A DNA stretch of 64,000 nucleotides from positions 7,436 to 71,435 of the forward strand of contig JAFUCJ010000005.1 of assembly GCA_017459705.1 (NCBI GenBank). The letters run 5' to 3'. The position numbers and the translations under genes are program-made. The DNA comes from Candidatus Saccharimonadota bacterium. Its GTDB lineage: Bacteria > Patescibacteriota > Saccharimonadia > Saccharimonadales > Saccharimonadaceae. Position 1 is the first letter of the stretch; the number at the start of each line of letters is the position of its first letter. A model generated the notes under the pieces. That model did not search any database. It had not been told where the DNA came from and saw only the letters and a list, made by a program, of their open reading frames with translations. Shown in pieces: positions 6,743-54,223 of the stretch.

Positions 6743-6804
6743 AAATAGTCAAAGTTAAGCTTGCTTAACTTTGGGTAATTTGAAGGAATGGCCTAGGATA
6801 TCCT

Positions 6805-16539: not shown

Positions 16540-16549
16540 CCGTACTTCC

Positions 16550-16669: not shown

Positions 16670-16702
16670 TTTTCACAAACTCCGTTCTTATCACTTGTAC
16701 TT

Positions 16703-16731
16703 ATTTTACATCATTATTGACGTTATGTCAA
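16703..16731 (-). promoter_or_regulatory. Sigma70-type promoter TTGACA-17-TAAAAT upstream of the ugd remnant and LCP operon
   Basis: On the minus strand, TTGACA is at plus coordinates 16726-16731 with a 17-nt spacer and TAAAAT at 16703-16708. A GGAG-type RBS precedes the ATG at 16669. Confidence 0.6.
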
Positions 16732-16863
16732 CTTTCGTGCGATAAAACTATTCGTCCACACGGTTAGACGTATTTTTGTCAATATACGCTTAACCGTAGT
16801 ATTGTAGCGCAATATTCCAGCCGGAGTGAGATAATTCAGAACTTAACAAACGTAGCTTAGTAA

Positions 16864-18255
16864 TTATATGCCCACCCAGCCCTTCACTAACCACACTAAT
16901 AGCATTACTGCTAGATAAATTAAACAATACAATAGCATTTCACCAAAATACTGCTTATATGTCCTACCGAATAATTTCGTGTACACAAATTTAGGATAGC
17001 TATACAACCATAAAGCCAAACTGCTTACAAAAGTACCGATGAAAACGCCAGGAAGGCCGATCCACTGCACCAATAATACCGAAACCACAATGTTCAGTAG
17101 AGACTCTACTACTGGCACAAATCTATCCTCATGATAGATTCCAGCTGCCTCTTTGAATACCGCAAAACTCTCTCGCATCATTCTTTGAAAATGTACCATC
17201 AAAAGCGTAATTAATGTAAAACCAGACAACACATATTCACTGCCATACCAAAGTTTCACAAATAGATCAGCAAACAGTATAATGCCGGCAGAAGATATTA
17301 AGACCACGGCAAAATTTACGTTTCTTACCTTGCTAAAAACTTTAAAGTTCTTATCAGTATTTTTGTCTACGAGCATATTTCCCACCGTAGGCGTCAAAGC
17401 CTTAATAGTTTGCGTAAATACAGTCTCGACCGCCGAAAAGATCATATGATAGTTTGAATACAAGCCAACCGTAGATACGTTAATAAAAGCTGAGATAATA
17501 ATGTTATCGGTGCTAAAAATAACAAACGACGAGACCTTATGTATAAATATTGCTCGCATTTTTTTGAAGATATCTTTTTCAATCAGCTTATCGAGCCTCT
17601 TTATATCCTTATCTCGCAAGATTGGATGTCTCGTCTCGGCAATCTTATATAAACAGAAATTTTTTGCAAGCTGCGAAATAATTCCAATTACCAAATAGAT
17701 ATAATAATTATTAGTAAGTAACAGTAAAAGAATTTGGACTAGAACAGTTATTACATTGGTAACAGTTTGGATTCTAGTAATAATATGCCCCTGCTCCGTA
17801 GCGTATAGAATACTTTGCCGATATGACATCACATACGAAGCAATCGTACTCGCCAAGATCAAATTATATGCAATATACATGTTCACGCCAGGTACCGGTT
17901 CGCGCACAATAAAATGTAAGAACGGTAATAACATTACGCCAATACCAGCCGTAATCAGGGCAATTATATAATAAGCTTTCCTATAGAACCTTAATAGTGA
18001 CTTAATTACGTCAATTTTATTAGTTTTAATTGGCTCATATAGATTAAAAATGATAGCACTACTAATTCCTAATTCCACAATACTCAGCGCAGAAATAATA
18101 TTAGTAAGTACGCCATTAAGGCCTAGATATTCCACACCGAGACTATCAATGAATACTTTTTGGAGCACGAACTTCGTCAAAATGCTTGTCACGTTTCCGA
18201 TAAACGCACTTACTGAATTTTTTGCCGGAGCAGTTTTTCTGAACTTCTTGAACAT
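16864..18255 (-). CDS. Polysaccharide flippase (Wzx, MOP superfamily)
   Basis: 463 aa with ~12-14 TM segments. The sequence style is typical of oligosaccharide flippases, and the gene lies within the glycosyltransferase operon. Confidence 0.8.
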   Translation of the reverse strand: MFKKFRKTAPAKNSVSAFIGNVTSILTKFVLQKVFIDSLGVEYLGLNGVLTNIISALSIVELGISSAIIFNLYEPIKTNKIDVIKSLLRFYRKAYYIIALITAGIGVMLLPFLHFIVREPVPGVNMYIAYNLILASTIASYVMSYRQSILYATEQGHIITRIQTVTNVITVLVQILLLLLTNNYYIYLVIGIISQLAKNFCLYKIAETRHPILRDKDIKRLDKLIEKDIFKKMRAIFIHKVSSFVIFSTDNIIISAFINVSTVGLYSNYHMIFSAVETVFTQTIKALTPTVGNMLVDKNTDKNFKVFSKVRNVNFAVVLISSAGIILFADLFVKLWYGSEYVLSGFTLITLLMVHFQRMMRESFAVFKEAAGIYHEDRFVPVVESLLNIVVSVLLVQWIGLPGVFIGTFVSSLALWLYSYPKFVYTKLFGRTYKQYFGEMLLYCLIYLAVMLLVWLVKGWVGI

Positions 18256-18256
18256 G

Positions 18257-19291
18257 CTATTCCCCCCTCTTTATTATTTTGTGTAAAAATCGATATCGAC
18301 AGAAATTCTTCCAAACTACATTGCTATCCTTTTTTCCTATAGCTTTTACTGGTAGCCCGTTCTTTAATTTCTCCAAAACACCCATCTTTGCTACATAACA
18401 ATTTAATTTCTTTTCATCATCCTCCGATAAGCCTAATTGAGCAATGCAATCTTTAAAATCCGCTTCAAAATCTTCCTTTTTGTAGTCATCAATCAACGCC
18501 AAACGCTTCATCACCTCCCAGACCGCCTTCAACTGTTCATAAATCGCTATCTGCTTTGTTTCGTTATCAGAAACATTCTCGCTAACAAACCTCAACATTT
18601 CACATGTTACAAAAAGCCTATCTTTTATGTTTTGGGTAACACGCCATCGCTCTCTACTACGCGTTAAAGATTTGTTATTCATTCTATAATAATAAAACGA
18701 ATCATCAATCGCCAACATTTTGTCTAGGTCTTTGCAGGCTTCAACATTAATTAATAAATCTTCACCCAAACTCAAATCGTAATTAAACGATGGATTACCA
18801 TCCAATAATTCTCTTTTGTATATCTTTCCCCACAAACTATTTAGCTTATATCCAGTTACTAGTAGTGAGATAATTTCATCGTGTTCAATGATATTGTTGT
18901 CTTCAACGTTGGCAATTGGCATGACTATTCCACCGTCAGGATAATATTCTGCATTGAACCTAATGACGTCAACATCATATTTCTCCATTTTTTCTACAAG
19001 CGTCTTAATGGCACCGGATTTCAAAAAGTCGTCAGCATCAACAAACATTATGTAGTCGCCATTAGATTTTTGAAGTCCTAACTTTCTGGCTGCGTTTACG
19101 CCTAGGTGCTTCACGCTATGCACTTTTACGCAATCGGCATTCTTGGCAATATCAACAGATTTATCCGTCGAGCCATCATCCACAACGATAACCTCCTTCT
19201 CGGGGTAGTCTTGAGAAAGAACTGATTCTATACATCGTCCTATGTATTCTTCGCCATTGTAATTCGGAATTATTATGCTAACCTTCTTCAT
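18257..19291 (-). CDS. Glycosyltransferase family 2
   Basis: N-terminus VSIIIPNYNGEEYIGRCIESVLSQDY...IVVDDGSTD, with the DxD motif VDADD. Confidence 0.9.
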   Translation of the reverse strand: MKKVSIIIPNYNGEEYIGRCIESVLSQDYPEKEVIVVDDGSTDKSVDIAKNADCVKVHSVKHLGVNAARKLGLQKSNGDYIMFVDADDFLKSGAIKTLVEKMEKYDVDVIRFNAEYYPDGGIVMPIANVEDNNIIEHDEIISLLVTGYKLNSLWGKIYKRELLDGNPSFNYDLSLGEDLLINVEACKDLDKMLAIDDSFYYYRMNNKSLTRSRERWRVTQNIKDRLFVTCEMLRFVSENVSDNETKQIAIYEQLKAVWEVMKRLALIDDYKKEDFEADFKDCIAQLGLSEDDEKKLNCYVAKMGVLEKLKNGLPVKAIGKKDSNVVWKNFCRYRFLHKIIKRGE

Positions 19292-20585
19292 TGCTTACCC
19301 CCAGTTGCTGCCATTTTTCTTTCTCTTTGCTTTCAATATCATACGCAAGCTCTACAACGAAGATCAAAGGAAGCAATACGTAATATGCAGCGCCTTTGTA
19401 TTCAAACATCAGAAAAACAGTAAAAGCTTGAATCATTAGTACTTTACTTATTCGTCTAAGCCCCATAATTTCATACACTGTTAGCCCATAAGACAATATA
19501 AAACCTATCAACCCCCAAAATAGAATATTTCTCAAAAATCCAACGTCGGTATTCATGTAGTATAATCCATCATTTGTATACCGTCCATCGCCGTACATGA
19601 CCGTGTCTTCCGTAATATCAACCTGCCACATCTTTTGTAACTTATTAAAAGAACTGTCCCCCACATCACCAGTCGTTATTAAATTCGTAAACGGCGAACT
19701 CATCCACTCATACCAATCGCTCATTTCTGGAACTGTCTTTAATATGGCGCCACCTAAAGCCAGCAATATGACTAATGTAACCGTTGCAAATACTATATGT
19801 TTTATCCTATTTCTATTCCAATGTATAAAAGCGGCCGAACACGTGACTAAGGTTGCTACTAGGCCAACTCTACCATAAAACATATTCCCCAAAAAGCATA
19901 TCGTAAAAGCGGGCACGAACCATTTTGCACTTATTGCCGGCGAGCGTGTCCCGTATCTTAGATACATCAAAAACATAGCACTGAAAGTGCAACACAATGT
20001 TTCATGAAAACCCGCAAATCCCTGCCACCCAATACGAAACATATAACGGCTGGCATCCAAAGCACTCAAACTATCGAAAAAAGTTCCCTTGCTTGATATA
20101 GTAAACCACACGTCTTGCCATCCGGGCACAATAACTAAGAGAATCGTGCTTATCACGTATATCACGTGAGTTAAAGCAAAATAGAGCATAAAGTAATTCA
20201 TAACGTGCTCTCCTCCGTGTCTTTTAATCACCAAGCACAGTAATGCTACGTATGTTATGCCGCGCTTAAAGTAAAAAGCCAATGGCGTAAAATACGAAAA
20301 ATCCATCGTTTCATATAGTTGCGGGATCACAATAGACATTGCGATTAATAGCAACATAGCAATTACAGACATCCATTGCCTTGGTTTAAATTTTGTTAAA
20401 ATCTTTATATTCAAAATAATATAAAATAACGGAATCCCTATAGTTATTATATCCATTATTACGCCAGGTATTTTTAAGCTCGGAGTATATATAAAGAAAC
20501 AAAAAGCAATCAATGTTGCAAAACTTATTTTTGAAATCGATGGGTTATTAGAAGAGGCTATTATTTTCTGGAACATTTTTTTCAT
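19278..20585 (-). CDS. O-antigen/EPS polymerase-like membrane protein (Wzy-like)
   Basis: 435 aa, >10 TM segments with a large loop. It sits between the GT and flippase genes and overlaps both neighbours. Confidence 0.65.
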   Translation of the reverse strand: MKKMFQKIIASSNNPSISKISFATLIAFCFFIYTPSLKIPGVIMDIITIGIPLFYIILNIKILTKFKPRQWMSVIAMLLLIAMSIVIPQLYETMDFSYFTPLAFYFKRGITYVALLCLVIKRHGGEHVMNYFMLYFALTHVIYVISTILLVIVPGWQDVWFTISSKGTFFDSLSALDASRYMFRIGWQGFAGFHETLCCTFSAMFLMYLRYGTRSPAISAKWFVPAFTICFLGNMFYGRVGLVATLVTCSAAFIHWNRNRIKHIVFATVTLVILLALGGAILKTVPEMSDWYEWMSSPFTNLITTGDVGDSSFNKLQKMWQVDITEDTVMYGDGRYTNDGLYYMNTDVGFLRNILFWGLIGFILSYGLTVYEIMGLRRISKVLMIQAFTVFLMFEYKGAAYYVLLPLIFVVELAYDIESKEKEKWQQLGVSNEEG

Positions 20586-22873
20586 TTACCACCCCTCTCG
20601 TAGATCTTTTCCAACCTTTCGACTATTCGGTTTATAGAATAATCTTGTATTCTTAATGCTGGGACGACTCTTGACTTTTTAGCCTTATAAATATCATCTC
20701 GCCACTTTTTTGAATCTTCTGTTATATCTTCAAAAACAAAGTTCCGATTTATCTTAGTATTTGGCGAAATTGTCGAACTTGCGACAACTGGCAATCCATT
20801 TGCTTGAGCCTCGATCAAAGCCATGCTTAACCCTTCATACAACGAAGGAAACACAAATATGTCAAACATATTATATAAATAACAGACATCATTTCTATTA
20901 CCTAGGAATAAGACTCTTTCCGCAACACCTAATTCTCTCGCCACCTTTTTTAAATGCCCATTAAGATCCCCATCGCCAACGATAACCATCTTGTATTTAC
21001 TACTATCTAGTTCTTTAAGTATCCTCAATAAATGTTCTTGATTCTTTTCTTTCGAAAGTCGGCCAACGTGCCCTATTATTATGTCGTCATCAGAATATCC
21101 AAACTTCTTTCTATACTTCAATCTAATTTCCTCATCAAACAAATATTGATCAATCTCCACACCATTATATATTACTTCAAAATTATATCCCCTAAACAAG
21201 TTTTCTCCGGCTTCTTTTTCGCAAGCAATCAAATTCGTAGCATTTCTTTGCATCATGTTCGCCAAAAACTTATGATACATTTTTCTTCCAAATCTATCCG
21301 GGCAAGTCGTATGAGAGTGCGAAATTCGCACCCTGGCGGCATTTTTATTTGCTGCTTTCATCACTAAGGCATTTTCAAAAGCGACATTACCATGTACTAT
21401 ATCCGGCTTCTCCATCTTCATTATCTTGTTTAAATCCATATACCGTTTTATTGGGTTTCTCGTAGTCGGAATACGCAAGATCCTACACCCAAGTTTGATT
21501 ATCTCATCCTCATAATCGAACTTAAAATCCTTAAATGTAAGAAACACTATTTCATATTTCTGTTTGTTAGCAAGTATTCTAACTACATTCATTAAAAAGG
21601 TCTCTATGCCACCATAGTTCATCTTATTAGATACATACATTATTTTTTTCTTTTTTTGTGTTTCCGGAATGTGGTTGTTATTATTCGCAATTGCATTGTA
21701 GAGTCTTTCACAATTCCTAGCATCATGAAGGGTAAAAAAAATCTTCGCGCGCATACCATAGTCAACAGTTTTAGTAGCATTTATTAACTTTTTGATCGAT
21801 CGCAATATATCATCCATATTGTCAACAACTGGCCCAAAACCATCTTTTTTATAATCAAAGTATCCCTCTTGATGCTGCCGCGCACGATACTCCTTTAAAT
21901 CAAATTGGTAATAGATCACTGGTTTATTCAGAAATGCAAAATCAAACGCCACACTAGAATAATCTGTAACCATTAAATTACATTTGCTAAAGAACCTTTG
22001 AATATTATCGTCTGGCGATAGTATTTTGATATTCCTACTCGGTGAATTGAAAAACTTCAAGAACGAGCGCATATTTATATGAGGATAAAAATAAACTCTT
22101 ATATTATTTTCTTCAATATACTTTATAAAATCTTGATTTTTCAAAAACCCAGACCAACTCTTATAATAATCTGTACTTAAAAAATTTCTATTTTTAAACA
22201 TCTTGTTTTTATCTCCACCCAACCAATTTCTCCAAGTCGGCATAATAAGTATCGACTTTTGTTTTTGCTTCCTGCTAGCATCTTTTAAACTATCCCACCT
22301 AGGGAATCCGGTAAGTAGTAAACTATCCTTTTTATAGCCAAATTTTCCCAAAATATAATCATATTCCCGCTTTGCACCGCAAACAAAATATTTGAAACGA
22401 GTCTGATTATAGTAAATCCATTTTGAGTCATCCTTTGTAATTCCATGCTGCAGGAAGACGCGGTCCTTGTATAATCCGAGCTTCACATGTAAGATATACC
22501 AAAAAATCGGGGCAGGATTTCCAGATTTTTGACTGCTAATATTTAAGTTTGCAGACATATAAAATAGCCAGTGCTTCAAACCGCCCCATTTTATCACATT
22601 CCCTAATTTAGCCACCTTGTCATAGCCGGCAGAATCAAACGTCATCGCATAAAAACAATAATCCGACGGATGTTTTTCCCTCACATATTTATAGAAATAA
22701 TATCCATTATCACGCGCTTCTCCTTCTTCAGCAATTAGCCATAGATTGCGTTTTCTAAGTTTATTAACAACCCGGAATGCAGAAGATGGTACTAATAGCA
22801 ACAGAAAAACAAACGGCGCCAGCAAATCTCTCATTTTAAACTGTTTAATCGCATTAATAATCCGCCCCATCAC
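20582..22873 (-). CDS. Fusion: CDP-glycerol glycerophosphotransferase (TagB/TagF family) + GT4 glycosyltransferase
   Basis: The N-terminal half has ILIMPTWRNW and VTDYSSVAFDFAFLNKPVIYY (TagF family). The C-terminal half starts IMYVSNKMNYGGIETF and has FVFPSLYEGLSMALIEAQANGLPVV (GT4). Confidence 0.85.
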   Translation of the reverse strand: MMGRIINAIKQFKMRDLLAPFVFLLLLVPSSAFRVVNKLRKRNLWLIAEEGEARDNGYYFYKYVREKHPSDYCFYAMTFDSAGYDKVAKLGNVIKWGGLKHWLFYMSANLNISSQKSGNPAPIFWYILHVKLGLYKDRVFLQHGITKDDSKWIYYNQTRFKYFVCGAKREYDYILGKFGYKKDSLLLTGFPRWDSLKDASRKQKQKSILIMPTWRNWLGGDKNKMFKNRNFLSTDYYKSWSGFLKNQDFIKYIEENNIRVYFYPHINMRSFLKFFNSPSRNIKILSPDDNIQRFFSKCNLMVTDYSSVAFDFAFLNKPVIYYQFDLKEYRARQHQEGYFDYKKDGFGPVVDNMDDILRSIKKLINATKTVDYGMRAKIFFTLHDARNCERLYNAIANNNNHIPETQKKKKIMYVSNKMNYGGIETFLMNVVRILANKQKYEIVFLTFKDFKFDYEDEIIKLGCRILRIPTTRNPIKRYMDLNKIMKMEKPDIVHGNVAFENALVMKAANKNAARVRISHSHTTCPDRFGRKMYHKFLANMMQRNATNLIACEKEAGENLFRGYNFEVIYNGVEIDQYLFDEEIRLKYRKKFGYSDDDIIIGHVGRLSKEKNQEHLLRILKELDSSKYKMVIVGDGDLNGHLKKVARELGVAERVLFLGNRNDVCYLYNMFDIFVFPSLYEGLSMALIEAQANGLPVVASSTISPNTKINRNFVFEDITEDSKKWRDDIYKAKKSRVVPALRIQDYSINRIVERLEKIYERGGK

Positions 22874-23655
22874 ACCCTCCTCCTCACAGCGTTCACTGCA
22901 TATCCTGCAAAATTCACCGCACTAGCAAGCGCGTTAAGGCTTTCTTGTTTACGATACAATCTCCAAATGCGCAAAATCGCCACCACCTTATTTGCCGACA
23001 AAGTCCCATTGCTACGTCTATAGATCGCAAGCGGTTCATCAAGTCCATACGCACACTCGATTTTCTTCAATATCTTCCACCAAGTTGCCGTATCCTCACT
23101 TGCTATATTTGGCATTTCTATATCAACTTTACTTAGCTTTTTCATATCAAACATTACTGCAATAGTTGATATCGTCGTATTCCTTAGCGCCTGCTTGTAC
23201 GTAATCGTCGCCGGCACATGTACGACCTTCCCATTCGGTCGACCTTCCGCATCCGCAAACTCATACCCAGTAAACGAAAACTCGCAATCCTTCTCCTGCA
23301 TGAACTTGACCTGTCGCTCCAGCTTCTCTGGCAACCATAAATCATCCGCATCAAGAAATGCCAAATAATCACCCCGCGCCTCTTTCGTGCCGGTATTTCT
23401 GGCAATTGCGGCACCCTGATTTTTGTTCAAGCAAACTAATTTTACCTGCTCAGAAGCATGCTTACTGATAACGCCCACCGTATCATCAGCAGAACAGTCG
23501 TCAACAATAATCAGCTCCCAGTTATGATAGGTCTGGCCTTGTACCGAGCCTATCGTCTGCGCAATATATTTTGCAGAATTATGCGTTGGTATCACAATGC
23601 TCACTAATGGCGATCGTTGCTCCTGCGACTTCTTTTTCATCTCTTCTTCCAACAA
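22870..23655 (-). CDS. Glycosyltransferase family 2
   Basis: VSIVIPTHNSAKYIAQTIGSVQGQTYHNWELIIVDDCSADDT, with DxD motif LDADD. Confidence 0.9.
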   Translation of the reverse strand: MLEEEMKKKSQEQRSPLVSIVIPTHNSAKYIAQTIGSVQGQTYHNWELIIVDDCSADDTVGVISKHASEQVKLVCLNKNQGAAIARNTGTKEARGDYLAFLDADDLWLPEKLERQVKFMQEKDCEFSFTGYEFADAEGRPNGKVVHVPATITYKQALRNTTISTIAVMFDMKKLSKVDIEMPNIASEDTATWWKILKKIECAYGLDEPLAIYRRSNGTLSANKVVAILRIWRLYRKQESLNALASAVNFAGYAVNAVRRRV

Positions 23656-23771
23656 AAACTTCCTAATACTCCAATTATATCACACTTCCCACTCTTCGTC
23701 AAGTGCGCGTAATAGTCCGGCGCCCTTGCGGTAAAGGGGATGTTAGTGAGTTATCTGCTGAAACGATCCTG

Positions 23772-24347
23772 TCAGAGTTCAATTAAGCTGACAATTCGTC
23801 CGTTATCGTATTCGGCGAGGGCGTTTTGATATTTCCTGAATTCAGGAGTTTCGCGCTTTACGGCGGTATCTACTAATGGTAAGTCAAAACGCATTAGAAG
23901 TTCGGACAAAATAGCACGGATGGTGCGGCCATTGAAATCTTGGAACGGATGAACATGCAAGAATTCACCCTCGGCATAGGCTAAGGTTTCAATCTGTAAA
24001 TCTAGGGTGACAGATTTGTCTAGCCGAGCTTGCATATTGGCGACATACTCGTGCATTTTAATTGGTATCTCGTATGGTTCGGGCGGGAGCCAGTTGCCAA
24101 CCTGAACTGGCACATTGCGCCACTTACCTGCAATTCCGGGTATAATATCACCGATAATGCGAAAATGGAAGTTTTTGATTAAATCTTCATCAAAAGAATG
24201 GTTTATGAACTTGCAATCCGTAATGTCATCCAGTAACTGCAACAATTTCGGAGCAATTAAATCTGAAAGTTCGGCATAAGTAAGTTTGCCTTTGGTGGTA
24301 TCAAAAGTACGGGTAGTACTTTCTAGCGAGCGTTCTTCTGTAGCCAT
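23772..24347 (-). CDS. Fic domain protein (class I FicT-like toxin candidate)
   Basis: 191 aa with Fic motif HVHPFQDFNGRTIR. This matches the canonical HxFx(D/E)GNGRxxR except for G to F at position 6. Confidence 0.8.
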   Translation of the reverse strand: MATEERSLESTTRTFDTTKGKLTYAELSDLIAPKLLQLLDDITDCKFINHSFDEDLIKNFHFRIIGDIIPGIAGKWRNVPVQVGNWLPPEPYEIPIKMHEYVANMQARLDKSVTLDLQIETLAYAEGEFLHVHPFQDFNGRTIRAILSELLMRFDLPLVDTAVKRETPEFRKYQNALAEYDNGRIVSLIEL

Positions 24348-28975: not shown

Positions 28976-29008
28976 GCAAATTTGAAGCAAATTTGAAGCA
29001 AATTTGAA
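28976..29008 (+). repeat. Three tandem 11-bp repeats GCAAATTTGAA overlapping the -35 of the downstream promoter
   Basis: Exact copies at 28976-28986, 28987-28997 and 28998-29008. The last supplies TTGAAT (29004-29009). Confidence 0.85.
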
Positions 29009-29032
29009 TAAAACATTCTTTTGTGCTACAAT
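29004..29032 (+). promoter_or_regulatory. Promoter TTGAAT-17-TACAAT (TGC-extended), 7 nt before the ATG at 29040
   Basis: -35 at 29004-29009, 17-nt spacer, TGCTACAAT with hexamer 29027-29032. No SD, so a leaderless start is likely. Confidence 0.55.
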
Positions 29033-29039
29033 ATCATGT

Positions 29040-30545
29040 ATGGAAGATGGACTTTCGAATCAAAAAATAGCACAAATCATTTTTAACTTCTCTAAAATGG
29101 ATAGCGAGCTAGAACACGTTGAGTTTAAAGTAAATCAGGCCGACTCAGAAATGATCGCAAAGAATATCTCTGCCATTACAAACTCAATGACCCGTCGCAA
29201 TTCTCCAAGAGGCTATATGGTTTGGGGGATCGATAATGCCAGCCATGAATTTGTTGGGACAAGCTTTAAGCCATATTCGGCGAAAGTTAGAAATAAAACC
29301 AAAGATAAGGAAAGTAATGAAGAGCTACTGGTGTGGTTATCTAAATATGTTAAGCCGTCTCCGAAGTTAGATGTTAGAGAGCTCGAAATAAACGGGAAGA
29401 GGGTCGTTGTTTTTATAATTACGTCAAATCCGTTGGAGCTCTCAAAGTTTCGAGGCAACGCTTTTATCCGCATCGGCGCTAATACTAGGCCACTTAATGA
29501 ATATCCATCCATCGAAAAAGAAGTCTGGTGCGAAATCCTCTCCAGGGAATTCGAGACAATTTCAGCAAAATCAAATTTATCAAAGGATGAAGTCGTTTCA
29601 CTGCTTGATTTTGATACTTTTTATACCATGCGACAAAATAGAGTGCACGTAGAACGTAGTCTTTTATTTACGGAGGCAATAAAATGTGGCATGATTAGGG
29701 ATAACCAAGATACGACCTACGATATAACCAATCTTGGTGCACTGTTATACGCCAAGAAATTAGATGACTTCTCGCAACTTTCTTCTAAAACTATGCGAAT
29801 TGTCCTATATCGAGGAAACTCGAAGCTCAACTTGATAAACGAAGAACGAAGCATAGGTGGGTATGTTGTTGAATTTAATCGTATTCATAACTATATTATG
29901 AACAAAGTTATTTCCGAGGATGTAATTGGTGAAGATGGGATACGGAGAGAAAAATATCTGTACCCGACGCTCACTGTACGCGAGTTACTCGCCAATACAA
30001 TCGTCCATCAGGACCTCTCCACAAACGTCATGCATCCCATGATAGAAATTTATTCAGATCGGATAGAATTCATCAATCCTGGCGCACCGCTAGTCCCAGA
30101 AGACAGATTTTTGGATTACCCGCCTCAGACCAGAAACCAAAGAATGGCCGAGGAATTTTATAGGGTAGGACTTTGTGAAATACAGGGATCCGGCTGGGAT
30201 AAGGTTGCTATCGAAGCAAGCGAGTTGAGCTTCCCCGCACCAAAGCCAGAAGTTACTCAGGATACGACCAGAATAATCCTGATGCAAGAAAAAACGCTCG
30301 CTAATATGACGAACGAAGAGCGTATGTGGTCACTTTATACGTTCGCATGCTTGCTGTGGGTCAAAAAGCAATTTCTTACGAACACCCTTGTAAGACAGCT
30401 TTTTCATATTCCAGACAATAATCTCTCTATGGCTTCTACTCTATTATCGCAAGCCGTAAAATCTGGACTGATTGTCGTTTTTGACGAACAGGCTGGCACG
30501 CGTAGCCGTAAATACATGCCGAAATACGTAAACGATGCATTCTAG
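29040..30545 (+). CDS. AlbA_2 (Schlafen-like) DNA-binding domain + HATPase_c_4-type ATPase-like domain protein, putative regulator
   Basis: N-terminus ELEHVEFKVNQ... (AlbA_2-like). The central TVRELLANTIVHQDL...IEFINPG pattern matches the family often annotated as a putative transcriptional regulator or RecG-like ATP-binding protein. Start set to MEDGLSNQ. Confidence 0.7.
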   Translation: MEDGLSNQKIAQIIFNFSKMDSELEHVEFKVNQADSEMIAKNISAITNSMTRRNSPRGYMVWGIDNASHEFVGTSFKPYSAKVRNKTKDKESNEELLVWLSKYVKPSPKLDVRELEINGKRVVVFIITSNPLELSKFRGNAFIRIGANTRPLNEYPSIEKEVWCEILSREFETISAKSNLSKDEVVSLLDFDTFYTMRQNRVHVERSLLFTEAIKCGMIRDNQDTTYDITNLGALLYAKKLDDFSQLSSKTMRIVLYRGNSKLNLINEERSIGGYVVEFNRIHNYIMNKVISEDVIGEDGIRREKYLYPTLTVRELLANTIVHQDLSTNVMHPMIEIYSDRIEFINPGAPLVPEDRFLDYPPQTRNQRMAEEFYRVGLCEIQGSGWDKVAIEASELSFPAPKPEVTQDTTRIILMQEKTLANMTNEERMWSLYTFACLLWVKKQFLTNTLVRQLFHIPDNNLSMASTLLSQAVKSGLIVVFDEQAGTRSRKYMPKYVNDAF

Positions 30546-30553
30546 CATTTTGC

Positions 30554-30689
30554 AATTTGCTTTGTGGTTGCTTCAAAAACATAAACGGAATTGGGAATTA
30601 ACAGAGGTAATTTGCTTTGTGGTTGCTTCAAAAACATAAACGGAATTGGGAATTAACAGAGGTAATTTGCTTTGTGGTTGCTTCAAAAC
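30554..30689 (+). repeat. 55-bp tandem repeat, 2.5 copies
   Basis: The unit AATTTGCTTTGTGGTTGCTTCAAAAACATAAACGGAATTGGGAATTAACAGAGGT occurs at 30554-30608 and 30609-30663, with a partial copy at 30664-30689. Each unit contains TTGCTTCAAA, the reverse complement of the upstream TTTGAAGCAA motif. Confidence 0.9.
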
Positions 30690-30759
30690 TACAAAGTATA
30701 GAAAACAATTTGATGGTACTTAAAACAACGATCTATGGAGAAAAACGCCGCACCAAAAT

Positions 30760-32649
30760 CTACCTACCACCCAAAATCCATTGAATCACTTGCCTTTTAA
30801 TTTCAAAATATTCATCTTTTTCAAATTGCATGTTGGCGATGCAGTATCTCTTATTAGTAATATGCGAGCAAAACATACATTCATGGAGCGAATTCGCATC
30901 TTGGATAAAAAACGAATTTGAGATTTTTCCAGAGCAAATCACATTGTATGAATTTGTACAATTCGCCGAGTCATCCACCCTGAGACAATAAGCACAGGCC
31001 CCGGACCGTTGTGATGCTACTGTATATTCCGAAGCGTGGCAAGAATCACAAAATGCGATGTTTTTGCAACGATTACAATTTGCACTGCGCCAGACTTTTT
31101 CACTTTCGTATACCGTGTCACTCTGTGCCACGTCCACCGAATTGAAATTTCTCTCAGTCGTCGTAAAGTTTGTTTCCCGCCAAATTTCAATTATGTCGTC
31201 TATGGATTCAACTTTTCGTTTCGGCAACATCCACGTTTCACGCTCGCTTTCATTTCTTTGCGTAATATACCTCGTAGAGTTCATGCTTTCCGCCCACGTT
31301 TCTTCACCGCTAATTGAATCATAAACCATCACTGCCGGCATCAACATTCCGCATCGCGACAACCTCGCCACTACATGACGATCCGGCAAAATTGCCAGCA
31401 ATCGCGCCTTTTCTCTCTGCGACGTATTGCCATCCTGAAATGTCGTCAACTTCGCGTCTGCAAATTCCGTCTGTTCCCCGCTACACAATTCTATATCCAA
31501 ATAATCCACCAGATGCTCCGCGTCATCATAATTCAGCCGAAAACAGAAATAATTCGCCACATTGGCATAGATTGCAGTTTTTAGTTCGTTGGAAATCTGT
31601 GTGTAATATTGTCCAGCTAGCACTACGGAAATATTATATTTTCGCGCTTCCGCCAAAAATCTCGTTAGCACTGGGTTTTCAACCACCGCAACTTCATCTA
31701 CTACGAGTATAATGTGCTCACTCAGTCTGCGTTGCATGCCCAGTGCAAAAAGTTGGTTCATAATGAGGCCAGCCAGGGTTTTTACCGCGCGCTCGCCATG
31801 CTTTGCGATATTTAGTGACACCAGAGTTACTTTATTCGTTACAATTTCGTATTCTAGCCGCCGACTATTTTGTCGGTAAATCGCCGGTGTCAGTTGTAGT
31901 TCATCTATCAGCGTCACCATGAGTGCAAAAGTCGCATCATGATATCGGGTTCTCAGTTCGTTGTAGTCCTGCCCAAAAAATTCTTGCAAACTTTCTGGCA
32001 GATATTTCTCCACACTCGCGAGCGTGATATTTTTGTATTGCGTATCAGTGAGCATTCTTCTGAGATTCTGTAAACTCAGCTCGCCTTTTTCTATCAGCGC
32101 ATATAAACAAGCCCGCGCCAAACGCTCCGCCATAGGATTCCAGCTCGTCGCAAGGGATTTCAATAGTCCTAGCATCATCTCTACGCTGTTTACGATATTT
32201 TCGCCATTCACAACGAACAGATCAAGTCCCCGGTCGCTATTTGTGTAGTCGAAAACTTTTACCTTGTCGCACCCGCCAATCTCATCTCTGAGCGCATCGT
32301 GCGGGTCTATCACGAGAAAATGATATTTGTCACCATAGTTTTCCATTGTTTCGCAGATAAAACTCGCTAAAAATTTGCTTTTCCCCGCCCCACTTGCTCC
32401 AAATACCGCTGTATGTTTATAAAAATCAATATCTTTTAATACAAGATAATGTTTTTCGTTGAAATACGGAAATTGCCTTAATTCCAAAATTGCTCCATTA
32501 GTTTCCGACGAGAACAACGACAAAGTTTTGGCCACGTTCAGATACTTCGGCGGCTTGGCCAGCACAAAAGCCTTCCGAAAGTCCAGATTTAGTATATCCG
32601 GCGTCGCGCCATGCAATCTCAGAATCTTTACGGAGCCGTTTTTCTCCAT
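30760..32649 (-). CDS. P-loop ATPase of the HerA/FtsK/VirD4-like (DUF87-type) class with a Cys-rich C-terminal domain
   Basis: Walker A FGASGAGKSKF and Walker B HIILVVDEVAV. The last ~125 aa carry many CxxC-like pairs and end ...KRYCIANMQFEKDEYFEIK. Confidence 0.7.
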   Translation of the reverse strand: MEKNGSVKILRLHGATPDILNLDFRKAFVLAKPPKYLNVAKTLSLFSSETNGAILELRQFPYFNEKHYLVLKDIDFYKHTAVFGASGAGKSKFLASFICETMENYGDKYHFLVIDPHDALRDEIGGCDKVKVFDYTNSDRGLDLFVVNGENIVNSVEMMLGLLKSLATSWNPMAERLARACLYALIEKGELSLQNLRRMLTDTQYKNITLASVEKYLPESLQEFFGQDYNELRTRYHDATFALMVTLIDELQLTPAIYRQNSRRLEYEIVTNKVTLVSLNIAKHGERAVKTLAGLIMNQLFALGMQRRLSEHIILVVDEVAVVENPVLTRFLAEARKYNISVVLAGQYYTQISNELKTAIYANVANYFCFRLNYDDAEHLVDYLDIELCSGEQTEFADAKLTTFQDGNTSQREKARLLAILPDRHVVARLSRCGMLMPAVMVYDSISGEETWAESMNSTRYITQRNESERETWMLPKRKVESIDDIIEIWRETNFTTTERNFNSVDVAQSDTVYESEKVWRSANCNRCKNIAFCDSCHASEYTVASQRSGACAYCLRVDDSANCTNSYNVICSGKISNSFFIQDANSLHECMFCSHITNKRYCIANMQFEKDEYFEIKRQVIQWILGGR

Positions 32650-32934: not shown

Positions 32935-32955
32935 TGGCGGAAGCGAGAGGATTCG
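32935..32955 (-). repeat. 21-bp direct duplicate of the tRNA-Ser(CGA) 3' end
   Basis: TGGCGGAAGCGAGAGGATTCG occurs at 33010-33030 (tRNA 3' end, plus-strand notation) and again at 32935-32955. The 54-bp spacer contains small hairpins. Confidence 0.8.
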
Positions 32956-33009
32956 CATTGAGCGAAGCGATATACGAGTCTCGCTTTTTGATGCGTTGCG
33001 TAAGCAACG

Positions 33010-34315: not shown

Positions 34316-37246
34316 ATGAAATTTGCATCGAGCTACGAACCGAGTCAGTTTGAACCAGATATTTACGCCGCCTGGGAGACGAGCGGTGCCTTCAAACCCA
34401 CCACACCCACAGTTCCCATTGATAACAATGACGACGGCATCGACGATCGATTTGAGACTGATGTGATACTAGCCGATTCGAGCGCATTTGCGACAACGGG
34501 AGCAAGCGACGAAGCGAGCCCCGTAACGACGGGCGCGAGCGAGGAGGCGCGAGAATCGGCTAGTATCACATCCAGGGACACCTATTCGATCGTTATGCCA
34601 CCACCCAATGCCAACGGCAATCTCCATATCGGCCACGGCCTTACTGTCGCCCTAGAAGATTCCCTTACTCGTTTCTATCGCTTGAATGGTAAATCCTCTT
34701 GGTACATTCCCGGCGCCGACCATGCCGGCTTTGAAACTTGGGTCGTCTACGAACGCACCCTAGAAAAAGACGGTCATACCCGTTTTGAATTCGACCGCGA
34801 CACTCTCTATGCGCGCGTCTGGGATTTCGTTGCCATGCAGCGTGGCAACATGGAGTTGCAACTCCGTGCTCTCGGCGCTTCTTGCTCCTGGGGTGACCTC
34901 ACCTTTACCCTGGACGAAAACGTCATCGATCGCGTTTACACCACTTTCGAAAAAATGTGGAACGACGGCCTTATCTATCGCGGCGAAAAACTCGTTAATT
35001 TCTGCCCCAAGCACCAAACCGCCTTCGCCGACATCGAAGTCGAGCATAAAGACGAAAAAGGCACCCTCTGGGAGATTGAGTATCCACTGATGAAAAATGA
35101 CGATGCGGACATTTTGCGAGCATTTGCAACAACGGAAGCAAACAACGAAGCTAGCCCCGTAACGACGGGTGTGAGCGAGGAGGCGAGCGAAATGCCTGTA
35201 TCGTCATGTATTATCGTAAGCACCACTCGCCCCGAAACCCTTTTCGGTGACATGGCTATCGCCGTCAACCCAGCCGATGACCGCTACAAACCTCTGATTG
35301 GTAAGCATGTCCACCTACCTCTCACCGACAGGACGATTCCTATTATCGCCGACGAACACGCCGACCCCGAGTATGGCACCGGCGCCGTCAAGATTACCCC
35401 TGCCCACGATTTCGATGATTTTGAAGTCGGCACCAGGCACGATTTAGATCGCCTCCAAGTCATAAGTGAGGACGGCCATATGATCAACGTTCCTGATAAA
35501 TACATAAGCCTCACCCCCACCGAATGTCGCAAACAAGTTCTAAAAGACCTCGAATCCGCAGGTCTGCTCCGCGGCGAACAAAAAATCACTCACAGCGTCG
35601 CTCATTGCTACAAGTGCGGCACCGTTCTCGAGCCAACCCTGAAAGAACAGTGGTTTGTCGACGTTAAGCGCCTGGCGAGTGATGCTATTAGGCACCTAGA
35701 ACAGGGCGAAATCACTTTCTACCCCGAAAACAAACAACGTGTCCTTATCAATTATCTCGAAAACTTAAAAGATTGGAACATTTCTCGTCAAATCCCTTGG
35801 GGTATTGCGATTCCTATGTTCAGAAAGGTTACAGAGGAAGCCACCGACGAGCCCGAATGGATTTTTGACCGCCGCACCAATCTCAAAACCATCGAGAAAT
35901 CCGGCGTTACCTACGTCCGCGACGAAGACACCTTTGATACTTGGTTCTCCTCTTCCCATTGGCCAATCGTCTGCACCGACTGGTCTGAGGACAATCCCAC
36001 TCCTTACTACCCACTCAATGTCATGGAAACCGGCGCCGACATCCTTTTTGCTTGGGTCGCCCGGATGATTATGATGGGGCTTTACGTTACCGGCGAAGTT
36101 CCATTCAAGGAAGTCTATCTCCATGGCCTTGTCCTCGACGCCCACGGCCAGAAAATGAGCAAATCCAAAGGTAACGTCATCAATCCGATGGACATGGTGG
36201 CAAGATATGGCTCAGATGCTTTCCGCCTAGGTATTCTCCGCGGTCGCTCGGCTGGCATGAACCAAGCATTTAGCGAAAACTCCGTTGTCTCTGGCCGCAA
36301 CCTCTGTAACAAACTCTGGAACATCTCTCGTCTCATTCAATCTGTGGTTGACGAAGACGAGGAAACAGAGCCACGAGGCGCATTTGCGACAACGGGAGCA
36401 AACGACGAAGCAAGCCCCGTAACGACGGGCGCGAGCGAGGAGGCGACGAGGGGCTCCGTTTCCTCATCTTATACGACCAACAACCAGGGCGAAGACTGGA
36501 TTTGCCGCGAGATTAACCAGTGTCTAGCAGACGTCGCGTCCGGCATGCACTCCTACCGCTTCTCTGAGGCCGTCGAGACCTTATACCAGACCATCTGGGA
36601 CAAATACGCCGATTGGTTCCTCGAATCCCAAAAAATCTACCGTAACGTCCCGCTTCTCAAAACCACGTTGGAGCACCTTCTGATTGCTCTCCATCCCTTT
36701 GCTCCCTTTGTCACCGAGGCTATCTGGCAAAACCTCAGTTGGACTTCCGGTATGATAATTAACGCCAAATGGCCCGGAGAGCTCATATACGACCCGATAA
36801 GCGCAACCGAATTCGAAAGCCTTATCTCAGTCGTCTCCGAAGTCAGGACCACCTTGCAGGCCCTACCAGGCACCAATAACGCCAAAAAATACGCACTACT
36901 ATTCGATAACGATAGTCTTGTTGAGGATAACCTGCTCCTTATCAAGGCTCTTACTAAGGTCCCCGCTGTCACCGCTTTAAACGGCGCCCCACGCGGCCTC
37001 CGCCTTGCCCTAGCCAACCACGAGCTTTACCTCGACGTCCCCGAGAAGGTCGTCAAGGACTACAAGGACGCCTTGACCGACAAAATCCTAGCCGTTGGTC
37101 GCGAGCTGGACGGTCTGAATGCCCGTATGCTAAATCCAAATTATGTCGATAAGGCCCCTGCCCACCTCGTCAAGGAAACCCAGGACGCCATCAAGGAAAA
37201 ATCCGACCTCATCTCCCGCCTGAAAACCCAACTTGAACTCATCTAG
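34316..37246 (+). CDS. valS: Valine--tRNA ligase, with three in-frame repeat insertions
   Basis: Class I motifs PPPNANGNLHIGH and KMSKSKGN, TTRPETLFGDMAIAVNP, and a C-terminal coiled coil. 976 aa. Confidence 0.95.
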   Translation: MKFASSYEPSQFEPDIYAAWETSGAFKPTTPTVPIDNNDDGIDDRFETDVILADSSAFATTGASDEASPVTTGASEEARESASITSRDTYSIVMPPPNANGNLHIGHGLTVALEDSLTRFYRLNGKSSWYIPGADHAGFETWVVYERTLEKDGHTRFEFDRDTLYARVWDFVAMQRGNMELQLRALGASCSWGDLTFTLDENVIDRVYTTFEKMWNDGLIYRGEKLVNFCPKHQTAFADIEVEHKDEKGTLWEIEYPLMKNDDADILRAFATTEANNEASPVTTGVSEEASEMPVSSCIIVSTTRPETLFGDMAIAVNPADDRYKPLIGKHVHLPLTDRTIPIIADEHADPEYGTGAVKITPAHDFDDFEVGTRHDLDRLQVISEDGHMINVPDKYISLTPTECRKQVLKDLESAGLLRGEQKITHSVAHCYKCGTVLEPTLKEQWFVDVKRLASDAIRHLEQGEITFYPENKQRVLINYLENLKDWNISRQIPWGIAIPMFRKVTEEATDEPEWIFDRRTNLKTIEKSGVTYVRDEDTFDTWFSSSHWPIVCTDWSEDNPTPYYPLNVMETGADILFAWVARMIMMGLYVTGEVPFKEVYLHGLVLDAHGQKMSKSKGNVINPMDMVARYGSDAFRLGILRGRSAGMNQAFSENSVVSGRNLCNKLWNISRLIQSVVDEDEETEPRGAFATTGANDEASPVTTGASEEATRGSVSSSYTTNNQGEDWICREINQCLADVASGMHSYRFSEAVETLYQTIWDKYADWFLESQKIYRNVPLLKTTLEHLLIALHPFAPFVTEAIWQNLSWTSGMIINAKWPGELIYDPISATEFESLISVVSEVRTTLQALPGTNNAKKYALLFDNDSLVEDNLLLIKALTKVPAVTALNGAPRGLRLALANHELYLDVPEKVVKDYKDALTDKILAVGRELDGLNARMLNPNYVDKAPAHLVKETQDAIKEKSDLISRLKTQLELI
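34461..34571 (+). mobile_element. Family-A in-frame hairpin element, copy 1 (111 nt)
   Basis: Arm ATGTGATACTAGCCGATTC...GAATCGGCTAGTATCACAT is perfectly complementary over 19 nt. The 66-nt core (34484-34549) encodes AFATTGASDEASPVTTGASEEA. Confidence 0.75.
35097..35207 (+). mobile_element. Family-A in-frame hairpin element, copy 2 (111 nt)
   Basis: Arms ATGACGATGCGGACATTT / AAATGCCTGTATCGTCAT are imperfectly complementary. The core (35120-35185) encodes AFATTEANNEASPVTTGVSEEA. Confidence 0.7.
36354..36470 (+). mobile_element. Family-A in-frame hairpin element, copy 3 (117 nt)
   Basis: Arms AAGACGAGGAAACAGAGCC / GGCTCCGTTTCCTCATCTT. The core (36380-36445) encodes AFATTGANDEASPVTTGASEEA. Confidence 0.7.
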
Positions 37247-37692: not shown

Positions 37693-37889
37693 TGAACTAA
37701 CAATCGCCCACCTCACACAGCGATTGGGAGATCCCGCAAGGATCTGTTTGATGAACCGCCAGCAGACAACGCTGTTGGCAACCGAAATCAAGTCGACCCG
37801 GACAGCAAAACGCTTCACGGAAAATATGGCTATGTACTAAAAAACATAAGCAGTCAAATTTTTGCATGTCGGGCGGGGCAGGAAAACAG

Positions 37890-38969
37890 ATGAAAATACC
37901 AATTACGCAGACGAAAAAATGGCAAAAATTACAGCAGGATTTAGGCAATAAAACTTTTTTTGAGAAAAAATCAGACTTCGAGTATTTAGCCATCGAGAAG
38001 CACACCCCAGTAGGGAATTACCTTTTTCTTCCTTATGGACCAGTGGCGAAAAGTGACCAAGGATTTCTAGATGCGATTAATTCGCTGATTGATTTAGCGA
38101 GGAATCATCGCTGCATTTTTATCCGCCTCGAACCGCAAGACGCCGCTTATCGCGCCCTCCTTCCTATGAACAGCAAAAAAGTCAAAGATGTCGAACCGGC
38201 AGAGACCTGGGTACTAGATTTGCCAGATATTTCCACCGCGGACCCGCTGGATGATCAATCCATAAAAGCCCTCCTCCCGTCACGCCTACTTCGCTATTAC
38301 AAGAACATGGCAAAGCAGGGAATCACCATCGAAAAATCCCACGACCCAGCCGATATTCACTACCTTGTCGAGCTCCAATCTGCCCTCGCCGCCGAGAAAG
38401 GCATCACGACTTTCACCGCGGACTACTTAAAAACCGAGCTCGAGCAAGACTTCGCAACCCTCTACCTATTGTTGCAGCATATGTCGCCCGCAATGCTTGC
38501 ATCGACGGGTGACGCCGCTTGGGGGACCCCCACGCCAGCGCGCGTGGGGGAAAATGCGGCGACAGGACCCGTCGAGTGTAGCGACGACAGGACCCGTCAG
38601 GATGCTCCCTCGGCGGCAGGACCCGTCGAGACTGACGTTGATCATGTCCTTGCCGCCGGCCTCGTTTTTGACGACGCCACCACCCGTTACAATCTTCAAG
38701 GCGCCCAATCCGAAACCGGCAGGAAACTGCACGCCACCGGCATCCTTACCATCGAGCTCATCCTCGACGCCGTACAGAACGGTCAAAAAACCTTCGATTT
38801 CTGGGGTATTGCTCCCGAGGGGGCGCCAGCTACGCACCCCTGGGCTGGCTTCACCGCCTTTAAGAAAACTTTCGCTGGCCGCGAGGTCAAATACGCCGGC
38901 ACTTACGATTTACCCACCGACCCTTTGAGATATCGCCTTTATCAGTTCCTTCGCAGATTCCGCCATTAG
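37890..38969 (+). CDS. FemAB family peptidoglycan aminoacyltransferase (FemX-like), with a GC-rich in-frame insertion
   Basis: Start set to MKIPITQTKKWQKLQQ...YLFLPYGP (typical FemX-like N-terminus). The C-terminus FDFWGIAP...FKKTFAG is family-like. Confidence 0.8.
   Translation: MKIPITQTKKWQKLQQDLGNKTFFEKKSDFEYLAIEKHTPVGNYLFLPYGPVAKSDQGFLDAINSLIDLARNHRCIFIRLEPQDAAYRALLPMNSKKVKDVEPAETWVLDLPDISTADPLDDQSIKALLPSRLLRYYKNMAKQGITIEKSHDPADIHYLVELQSALAAEKGITTFTADYLKTELEQDFATLYLLLQHMSPAMLASTGDAAWGTPTPARVGENAATGPVECSDDRTRQDAPSAAGPVETDVDHVLAAGLVFDDATTRYNLQGAQSETGRKLHATGILTIELILDAVQNGQKTFDFWGIAPEGAPATHPWAGFTAFKKTFAGREVKYAGTYDLPTDPLRYRLYQFLRRFRH
38503..38631 (+). mobile_element. Family-B in-frame GC-rich hairpin element (one full unit plus two extra right-arm copies)
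   Basis: TCGACGGGTGACGCCGC...GGGGGACCCCC...GCGGCGACAGGACCCGTCG (38503-38575), followed by GACGACAGGACCCGTCA and GGCGGCAGGACCCGTCG. Confidence 0.65.
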
Positions 38970-54151: not shown

Positions 54152-54223
54152 ACATAAACACTACGGAGCTGGTACCCATGGTGCCAGCTCCACCATATCA
54201 GCAGGGAAAGGAGAGCCAACAAA

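Follow-up and report, generated by a model that had tools for sequence, protein, structure and literature searches.

Insertion sequences of the IS200/IS605 family and their miniature derivatives (PATEs) carry two end hairpins on the same strand, have no terminal inverted repeats and generate no direct target duplication, and the IS200/IS605 family is further marked by precise ends and by an orientation that is biased relative to replication. Inverted duplication of flanking sequence is known from the P-nucleotide or hairpin-opening footprints of V(D)J recombination and hAT-type elements, where it results from the off-centre opening of a hairpin, and to our knowledge none of the IS200/IS605, PATE and REP families has a long stem formed by inverted copying of its target. 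The Rickettsia palindromic elements (RPEs) are palindromic repeats of ~100-150 bp which occur in many copies, lie in frame in unrelated housekeeping genes and are translated (PMC10969869). The present work concerns Family A, a repeat of which three copies lie in valS and a diverged fourth in ileS within a 64,000-nt stretch of DNA from a Candidatus Saccharimonadota bacterium (contig JAFUCJ010000005.1; this whole stretch is referred to below as the window). Each copy has a core of ~70 nt containing two hairpins, P2 and P3, enclosed by a stem whose two arms differ in sequence from locus to locus. Family A is in our judgement probably an in-frame element of RPE-like character, which on insertion duplicates the adjacent target in inverted form. 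The mobile unit would then lack closing arms, the 3' (P3-side, or right) arm would be host sequence beside the insertion point, and the 5' (left) arm would be an inverted copy of that host sequence, that is, an inverted target-site duplication. Because the arms would be built from the local target, the stem of each copy would be unique and would start exactly at the core ends.

The behaviour of the elements is closest to that of the RPEs, which they resemble in their in-frame, translated insertion into unrelated genes and in residing in a reduced-genome, host-dependent bacterium, while their anatomy is closest to that of the IS200/IS605-type miniature elements. The RPE repeat is conserved as a whole, whereas here only the core is conserved and the arms are locus-specific and probably host-derived; the hosts are moreover Saccharibacteria and not Rickettsia, and the two groups are set apart here by description. 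With the IS200/IS605 family and the PATEs the elements share P2 and P3 on the + strand, the lack of terminal repeats and of direct duplication, and an orientation bias, which is seen at 60 of 74 sites as read from GC skew. They differ from IS200/IS605 elements in that the strand which tolerates G.T pairs lies on the C-rich strand, and they may differ in their targets as well, no 5' tetranucleotide being common to the three target sites compared. The departure from classical MITEs is that the termini differ at every locus, with no longer version having the same ends in the ~1.1 Mb of loci analysed, and that the duplication is inverted, with no direct target-site duplication at four junctions. 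REP and REPIN sequences are described as extragenic and RAYT-mobilised (PMC3733652). Here 76% of copies are genic and the core is a two-hairpin structure of ~70 nt, as against the 20-40 nt palindrome of REP; the REP head is GTAG or CGTC, and the reverse strand of P3 contains CGTC, though not as a terminal head. By these comparisons Family A is not an RPE, a classical MITE or a REP element.

Other processes which produce inverted copies differ in scale or in lacking a core. The P-nucleotide footprints amount to a few nucleotides, are eukaryotic and have no central element, whereas here arms of 15-30 nt surround a core. Template-switch mutation and quasipalindrome correction occur in connection with replication; in a single event they generate an inverted copy of nearby sequence, or make an existing one perfect, and the resulting changes look compensatory without selection (10.1101/2023.04.19.537475). 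They are sporadic and involve no mobile core, whereas here the inverted copy abuts a repeated core and forms one indel unit with it. Mitochondrial coding palindromes, in Nematomorpha and in the hairpin elements of fungi and sponges, place long inverted repeats in genes with both arms translated (PMC6649704); in Nematomorpha both arms code conserved protein and share no mobile core, whereas here one arm is extra and a core lies between the two. A literature search found no description of a target-derived closing stem in bacterial repeat elements. If the arms are indeed made from the target, this would be the first bacterial repeat family known with an inverted rather than a direct target duplication, and it would point to an unrecognised strand-transfer or template-switch chemistry, on which the defined core ends (GAG...CGA), the fixed native side and the replication-strand bias provide handles.

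Locus-specific arms and the side of the native arm

The copies analysed come from one exact-pattern genome scan, and all copy counts given here are counts among the matches listed, many of which are orthologous. From the genome loci, which comprise 8 kb around each copy and about 1.1 Mb in all, and from the window, 124 copies were extracted, and the 115 with full flanks were analysed. Nearly every one of these has its own closing arms of 15-30 bp, with a stem that abuts the core directly and opens with the tandem G.A motif CGAG/CGAG; the arms are perfect in 15 of the 98 copies with an arm alignment of 14-45 nt. When the 8 conserved inner bases are trimmed, the median complementarity of the arms is 0.71 within a copy and 0.25 across copies (95th percentile 0.44). 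For 157 non-orthologous pairs of copies whose cores are at least 85% identical (median 89%), arm identity is 0.50, which is the value for shuffled sequence (0.50), and at orthologous sites the divergence of the arms about equals the divergence of the flanks.

The original prediction had set out the arm pairs of the three valS copies in the window. The arm pairs and coordinates which it gave are exact, including the perfect 19 bp of copy 1, and the stem that it described within each copy, around a conserved core, proves to be general across the 115 copies. Its statement that the arms are unlike between copies is essentially right, although copies 2 and 3 share an outer AxGACGAxG, which fits an acidic-codon bias, and it was correct in separating this pattern from that of classical MITE termini. 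The mirror-biased peptides which it pointed out, acidic on the left and Ser-rich on the right, are also present (DVILADS/ESASITS, NDDADIL/EMPVSS and DEDEETEP/GSVSSS); since GAN codons are the complement of NTC, they are a trivial consequence of the complementarity of the arms.

Four pairs of filled and empty valS alleles allow the inserted unit to be delimited at the DNA level. In three of these, L118 (filled) and L119 (empty) at site 2 (97.9% identity over the gene, indel of 87 nt), L200 and L201 at site 1 (80% identity over the gene, 102 nt), and L204 and L205 at site 3 (flanks about 90% identical, 102 nt), the indel consists of the left arm plus the core, its right end falls exactly at ...CGA/G, and the empty allele has the right arm as coding sequence. 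At site 2, which is the site of copy 2 in the window, the Family-A copy of L118 reads GTAGAAG/GCGAACTGGGCGATTTGC-GAGC...GGCGA/GCAAATTACCCAGTTTGCC and the empty allele L119 reads GTAGAAG/GCAAATTACCCAGTTTGCC (slashes mark the junctions), the right arm coding KLPSLP in L119. In L201 the right arm, GAAACTACTTGTCCTTGTTACT, corresponds to the native loop ETTCPCY at its canonical length and continues into the conserved Tyr of YSIVMPPPN, and at site 3 the indel comprises the left arm and an S1-type core, with the right arm GAGGACACCATTTCAAATTCGCC present in the empty allele. The fourth pair, L206 and L207 at site 2 (flanks 97-99% identical, indel of 90 nt), differs by the core together with 7 nt from the inner part of each arm, and in the empty allele, GAGAATCCAGAAGATA/TATCTTTGGATTCTC, the two outer arms remain as a palindrome; the protein pair P0012/P0133, from another family, is similar in that the arms are kept without the core. 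All four DNA-level indels are multiples of 3, and the four junctions lack a direct repeat, showing only an ambiguous microhomology of 2-4 nt. Three target sites (GAAG^GCAAA, GTTT^GAAAC and CGGT^GAGGA) have in common only a G and then purines on the 3' side. A metagenome scan with ValRS returned five relatives at 58-74% identity and others at ~35%, with no usable empty sites among them, and in distant locus orthologs (flanks 70-83%) the loops are unalignable, so that length differences are ambiguous between one and two arms.

Because a single indel cannot tell gain from loss, arms that overlap residues conserved across phyla were also examined. In the Obg protein of L095, residues 16-112 and 144-366 align with the B. 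subtilis and T. thermophilus structures, and the 31 residues between them (VSELGPF...RERSGS), which represent the left arm and the core, have no structural counterpart. The right arm codes (R)KDLIAD, which the alignment sets against B. subtilis TKQVIAD and T. thermophilus GELLAD, and it codes x-[LI]-[LI]-A-D in 7 of 7 orthologs. In the LeuRS of L038 the P3-side arm is gene-upstream, because the core is antisense to the gene, and here the first codons of the P3-side arm, F-T-I, align with F-P-V of the conserved GAEILFPV (GAEIxFxI). The minimal loop of MnmA is VKDGKLLRAV, and in 14-residue alleles (VEQFESNACLMRAV) all that is left of an antisense S1 copy is its P3-side arm. At 5 of 6 informative sites, which include both gene orientations, the native arm lies on the P3 side; at the sixth, MnmA, it also does so, on weaker evidence, and the number of contradicting sites is 0. 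Since the native arm is P3-side whatever the orientation of the gene, it is the 5' arm that appears to be the inverted duplicate of host sequence. The filled and empty indels and the native arm in Obg and LeuRS thus support an inverted duplication of the target, which the original prediction had offered as one of two explanations.

Core structure, host genes and strand bias

At least 117 genome stretches contain the conserved element word, and the titles of nearly all of them name Saccharibacteria or Nanosyncoccus; the window is itself from a Saccharibacteria genome of the Nanosyncoccus type found in the ruminant gut. Saccharibacteria of the ruminant gut carry the core in abundance. Family A belongs, as one subfamily, to a far larger and modular family of GC-rich mobile cores of ~70 nt, which begin with 5'-GAG, end with CGA-3' and contain two same-strand hairpins, P2 being variable between subfamilies and P3 conserved, both with NACG loops and tandem G.A motifs. 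The P3 consensus common to all copies, GC-GA-GCCCCGT-RACG-ACGGG-C-GC-GA-GC, has an internal tandem G.A motif and a bulged C. The P2 subfamilies include GGT-TACG-ACC (36 copies), GCT-TACG-AGC (8), GGC-TACG-GCC (4) and GGT-CACG-ACC (3), as well as the type present in the window, xTTYGC-GAC-AACG-GGA-GCRAx, in which TTCGC is found with GCGA in 21 copies and TTTGC with GCAA in 14, with 0 mixed cases; in diverged P3 variants Watson-Crick pairs (CTTCG...CGAAG) take the place of the tandem G.A motif. The absence of mixed P2 pairings and the P3 variants together indicate that the core is a genuinely covarying structured nucleic acid. A naive scan for hairpins with 4-nt loops was uninformative, and explicit motif tables were used in its place. 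The hammerhead, the kink-turn and domain V of group II introns were considered as matches to the core and set aside, since the order of motifs does not fit by eye, in agreement with Rfam.

No autonomous long version, in the form of a left module without P3 within 45 nt, was present in the ~1.1 Mb of loci: all seven left-module hits were short copies; in six of them P3 has merely diverged further, and the seventh is an incomplete duplicate next to an intact copy. Viral contigs scanned with the P3 pattern gave 0 matches. In L054 (4154-4213) the left arm and the first ~30 nt of the core are partly tandem-duplicated directly upstream of an intact copy. Two further loci, L066 (3473-3654) and L074 (197-339), are chimeric, with a left arm like that of the L013 site and a right arm or core end like that of L114, which reflects either recombination between copies or misassembly of the metagenome-assembled genome at the repeat; the elements may thus cause chimeric joins in metagenome assembly.

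Inside stop-free frames of at least 250 codons lie 87 of the 115 copies (76%), and the frames are read straight through the element. The corresponding figure for length-matched random windows taken from these loci is 68%, so the element does not avoid genes, and the surviving copies preserve the frame. The host proteins include ValRS, IleRS, LeuRS, Obg, MnmA and a LepA-like protein, and one genic copy in four runs antisense to its host gene; judged from the reading frames, the element is mostly read in frame as a predicted loop insertion of roughly 30-37 residues. Ultra-small Saccharibacteria genomes thus withstand in-frame insertions by the dozen in core proteins such as aminoacyl-tRNA synthetases, Obg and MnmA. 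The elements inflate the variation in length among orthologs, ValRS ranging from 868 to 1086 residues in the 120 best orthologs listed and their cluster mates. A few ValRS loops are struck repeatedly by different subfamilies, and nearly all of the 120 orthologs listed have some element in the copy 3 loop. The site-2 loop is found in classes of 5 residues (DDIIV and similar, ~69 sequences), 9 residues, 11-22 residues, which are arms only with the acidic-then-Ser pattern, and 35-83 residues, which are filled. Repeated invasion of loops and the footprints left behind provide a visible route by which selfish DNA can lengthen proteins. In P0153, a ValRS of the P0078 cluster, a 25-residue insertion (EEPHN[DGTTKREKNQLADFSEQGSSVLRSI]DGRDE) is nested at site 1 in the P3 loop of an existing element.

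In 93 of 115 copies the C-rich strand is the one that carries the + strand of the element, and after de-replication this holds at the 60 of 74 sites noted above (p = 6e-8). This orientation is about equally frequent in each class, with 25 of 34 sense, 12 of 15 antisense and 23 of 25 non-coding or ambiguous cases, and the sense strands of the hosts divide 50 vs 37 relative to skew. Orientation follows replication, as read from GC skew, and not the direction of transcription. The original prediction had noticed neither this relation to replication nor the larger family to which Family A belongs. Arm mismatches also depend on the strand of the element, with 73 G.T and 33 A.C on the + strand (66 and 31 when the inner 6 nt are trimmed, p = 5e-4). 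The G.T excess is present in both sense copies (35 vs 19) and antisense copies (17 vs 3), whereas relative to the host sense strand the mismatches show no bias (45 vs 38). Folding of the host mRNA was rejected as the source of the excess because the bias tracks the strand of the element in both orientations, and replication-linked mutation bias was rejected because the C-rich strand would be expected to gain A.C. One particular strand appears to need to fold, and the biases in strand and orientation are hallmarks of a single-stranded DNA stage.

Comparison of species at the same site reveals how arms and cores change over longer periods. At the Obg site, in seven species, 16 of the 26 pairs of the closing stem have changed on both sides, and 95% of cells are paired as against 35-44% in slid controls; three core subfamilies sit on homologous arms, and the right arm follows the host codons. 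At a LepA-like site, two species (L014, 4046-4160, and L024, 2648-2749) have homologous arms with the core flipped, L024 obeying the GC-skew rule and L014 not, which suggests an inversion between the arms. The tracking of host codons, the exchange of subfamilies, the flipped core and the footprints together imply that cores turn over on arms that persist. The loss of a core leaves a palindromic footprint, acidic and then Ser-rich, and the complementarity of the arms may be renewed by re-copying or templated correction and not only by selection on point mutations.

Proposed mechanism and competing explanations

The inverted copy would be made at insertion or immediately afterwards, in a step that is probably single-stranded and linked to replication. 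The nascent G-rich (leading) strand might fold back or switch template, and would copy the native arm, then the core and then the duplicate arm. Alternatively, the single-stranded core might form a bridge between both strands of a broken end, with a nick 15-30 nt away releasing the flipped strand. Cores would later be lost, leaving footprints, or be replaced by another subfamily, or be flipped, and repeated re-copying or templated correction would keep the arms complementary as the host codons diverge. It can be suggested tentatively, as a possibility to which we give less than an even chance, that this is a new insertion mode in which a single-stranded hairpin core, acting in a replication-strand-specific manner, flips or copies 15-30 nt of adjacent target in the same reaction. 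If so, each copy would build its own stem from the host gene, and cycles of gain, loss and re-gain would lengthen the surface loops of essential proteins.

Several observations weigh against the inverted duplication of the target. On phylogenetic grounds each single indel could be either a gain or a loss. The copied arm of L118 has 3 transition mismatches in 23 nt while the alleles L118 and L119 differ by only 2%, which could mean either that L119 arose by deletion or that the copying is prone to error. At the site of copy 1 in the window, orthologs that are empty lack the left arm, but the nearest of these (~80% protein identity) have neither arm, and the difference in length is 111 nt, which is the core plus two arms; P0078 compared with P0043/P0154 gives the same pattern, with both arms missing. 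In such cases either the loops were once longer or both arms can arrive together, and the origin of the arms of the valS copies 1-3 in the window would have to be deduced from other sites. The arms and the core also seem sometimes to have been duplicated together as a larger unit, because the intergenic paralogs of CAZOPB01 (GGTGCGGAGCTTACGAGCGAGCATGCAGTGCGGG...; L051, 7400-7900, and L061, 1400-1900, from the same metagenome-assembled genome, and also L116) share their arms and ~35 nt further to the left. The copy counts, which come from the single exact-pattern scan, are lower bounds, and many of the copies are orthologous. The mobilising enzyme was not identified, and no search was aimed at a Y1/HUH transposase. 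The comparison of P0078 with P0043/P0154 was itself dropped as a case for the origin of the arms, the N-terminal loop of the comparators being divergent.

Among the competing explanations, one separates the insertion from the copying: the core would insert alone, and its structure would then provoke the host into a template switch that copies the flank. Template switching can make a whole hairpin in one event (10.1101/2023.04.19.537475), the orientation is biased relative to GC skew, and the native arm is on the side that the G-rich (leading) strand would copy first, all of which this explanation accommodates. It predicts a stage that is hardly seen, in that there are almost no arm-less cores among the 115 copies, and it leaves unexplained why the arms always abut the core ends exactly, why their lengths are narrow (mostly 15-30 nt) and why the indel unit observed is arm and core together. 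We regard it as unlikely.

A second explanation dispenses with copying altogether, by supposing that the core inserts only at the apex of existing palindromes, so that the arms are purely target sequence and the indels of left arm plus core are asymmetric deletions. The empty alleles of L206/L207 and P0012/P0133, which have adjacent arms and an indel exactly at the centre, are what it would predict; the swapping and flipping of cores on the same arms, the loops struck repeatedly, and the empty site of L119, which is a 10-bp inverted repeat with an 8-nt spacer, agree with it as well. There is no palindrome, however, in the minimal loops DDIIV (ValRS) and VKDGKLLRAV (MnmA) or in the Obg and LeuRS structures, and something must consequently create the first one; the three asymmetric indels moreover remove the same side and end exactly at the 3' boundary of the core, a pattern that would not be expected of random deletion. 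As a complete account this explanation is improbable, and insertion into existing palindromes is most likely a true second step, the re-insertion of cores into footprints, and not the whole story. Existing terminator hairpins were likewise rejected as targets at genic sites, on the ground that the minimal native loops have no palindrome.

It is highly improbable that the arms belong to the element and travel with it, under selection for a long hairpin of RNA or single-stranded DNA which is maintained by compensatory substitutions, and as an account of where the arms come from this explanation is already contradicted. It was the other of the two explanations offered in the original prediction. 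Covariation is real, both in the core hairpins and at the Obg site, where 16 of 26 pairs changed on both sides, and the preference for G.T over A.C on one strand, the arms shared by paralogs in one genome (CAZOPB01) and the very stable folds can all be cited for it. What does not follow is that covariation accounts for the origin of the arms: near-identical cores have unrelated arms, arms at orthologous sites diverge as the flanks do, different core subfamilies sit on homologous arms, and in Obg and LeuRS one arm codes residues conserved across phyla. The comparison with empty sites, which had been put forward as a test of this explanation, went against it, since alleles without a core hold one arm as coding sequence without its complement. 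Arms which covary without selection on their sequence could mislead screens for structured RNAs. The remaining explanation, that the element acts at the RNA level as a regulatory hairpin or as an intron-like segment that is removed so that its peptide is never made, draws on the structured, covarying hairpins with NACG loops and on the location in essential genes, but it can be virtually dismissed, because the frames are open through the element and the four DNA-level indels are all multiples of 3, a constraint that would be pointless if the RNA were removed, and because a quarter of the genic copies are antisense, the mismatch bias and orientation follow the element strand and GC skew and not the mRNA, and Rfam, which includes ribozymes and introns, gives no match over the elements in the valS region.

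Copies and other features in the window

The gene valS (34316-37246, + strand) codes for a valine--tRNA ligase of 976 residues, identical to P0001, which is named valine--tRNA ligase and titled Candidatus Saccharibacteria bacterium. Alignment with the T. thermophilus ValRS (1GAX) gives three aligned blocks, the breaks in which are the three insertion sites. In copy 1, the left arm at 34461-34479 (ATGTGATACTAGCCGATTC, encoding DVILADS) is the perfect 19-nt complement of the right arm at 34553-34571 (GAATCGGCTAGTATCACAT), and the 73-nt core at 34480-34552, from 5'-GAG to CGA-3', contains P2 (TTTGC-GAC AACG GGA-GCAAG) and P3 (GCGAGCCCCGTAACGACGGGCGCGAGC); the stem can be extended to 26 nt at 92% (34460-34485 / 34547-34572, inverted repeat I3). 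By analogy with the other sites, the right, P3-side arm of copy 1 is the candidate native host sequence and its left arm would be the inverted copy.

Copy 2 has its left arm at 35097-35114 (extended repeat 35089-35117), its core, 85% identical to that of copy 1, at 35115-35189, and its right arm, AAATGCCTGTATCGTCAT, at 35190-35207 (extended repeat 35187-35215). Of the 18 arm positions 15 are Watson-Crick, 2 are G.T and 1 is A.C, and the extended repeat is 29 nt at 76% (I6). The outer part of the right arm codes C-I-I of the conserved segment IIVSTTRPE, and from residue 298 onward ValRS (CIIVSTTRPET) aligns with the native FIEIATVRPET of 1GAX. The arms of copy 3, at 36354-36372 and 36452-36470 (inverted repeat I2), have 17 Watson-Crick and 2 A.C pairs at 19 positions, and they enclose a core (36373-36451) that is 84% identical to that of copy 1; the right arm, GGCTCCGTTTCCTCATCTT, ends at the conserved Y of YTTNNQGEDW. 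All of these features are on the + strand, as is copy 4 (58317-58438), a member of a diverged subfamily which lies inside ileS (56605-59826, identified by the Pfam domains tRNA-synt_1 and Anticodon_1) in a reading frame that differs from that of the valS copies. It has the same P3 hairpin, a different P2 (GAAATCCT-CACG-AGGATTTC) and its own arms, AAATGCCTTATCTGCAACTTTTGAGACC / GGTCGAAAAAGTTACAGGAAGGCATTT.

A 17-mer core word, AGCCCCGTAACGACGGG, is shared by the copies and occurs 4 times in the window against 0.09 expected. As RNA, copies 1-4 each fold to a Y shape with the arms closing, with z-scores relative to dinucleotide shuffles of -8.4, -5.8, -3.8 and -5.7; copy 3, at -3.8 on the + strand, reaches -6.0 on the - strand. 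GC skew is negative throughout the window, even where genes switch strand. A search of the valS region against Rfam at E <= 10 placed no family (ribozymes, introns or riboswitches) over the elements, and the sole matches were chance ones to the terminator after valS.

A second family of GC-rich repeats in the window (GGGTGACGGCTGCGGAGGGGGA...GGCAGGACCCGCCC) is also in frame, with copies at 57433-57515 and 57703-57765 in ileS and at 38502-38629 in a FemAB-family open reading frame (ORF, 37866-38969). Two of the three copies fold as hairpins, and the family has no sequence similarity to Family A. Two further long imperfect inverted repeats, one just after ileS (59839-60074, arms of 26 and 44 nt) and one that spans the start of the ORF 54224-54901 (54195-54309, fold z = -5.1), contain no Family-A core. 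A 55-nt tandem repeat at 30554-30718, with two identical units and a third at 62%, lies between a Schlafen/AlbA_2-type ORF (29004-30545) and a HerA-like ATPase ORF (30760-32649). Within the ORF at 61031-63166, which has 711 residues and no Pfam match, lie diverged 60-nt repeats (62729-63064) with a high content of Glu, Ala and Arg. Partial 3'-end duplicates of the two tRNA-Ser genes lie 75-80 nt from the genes, at 6798-6824 and 32935-32964; these and a block of low GC content (35-41%) at about 16000-24000 may be remnants of integrated elements.

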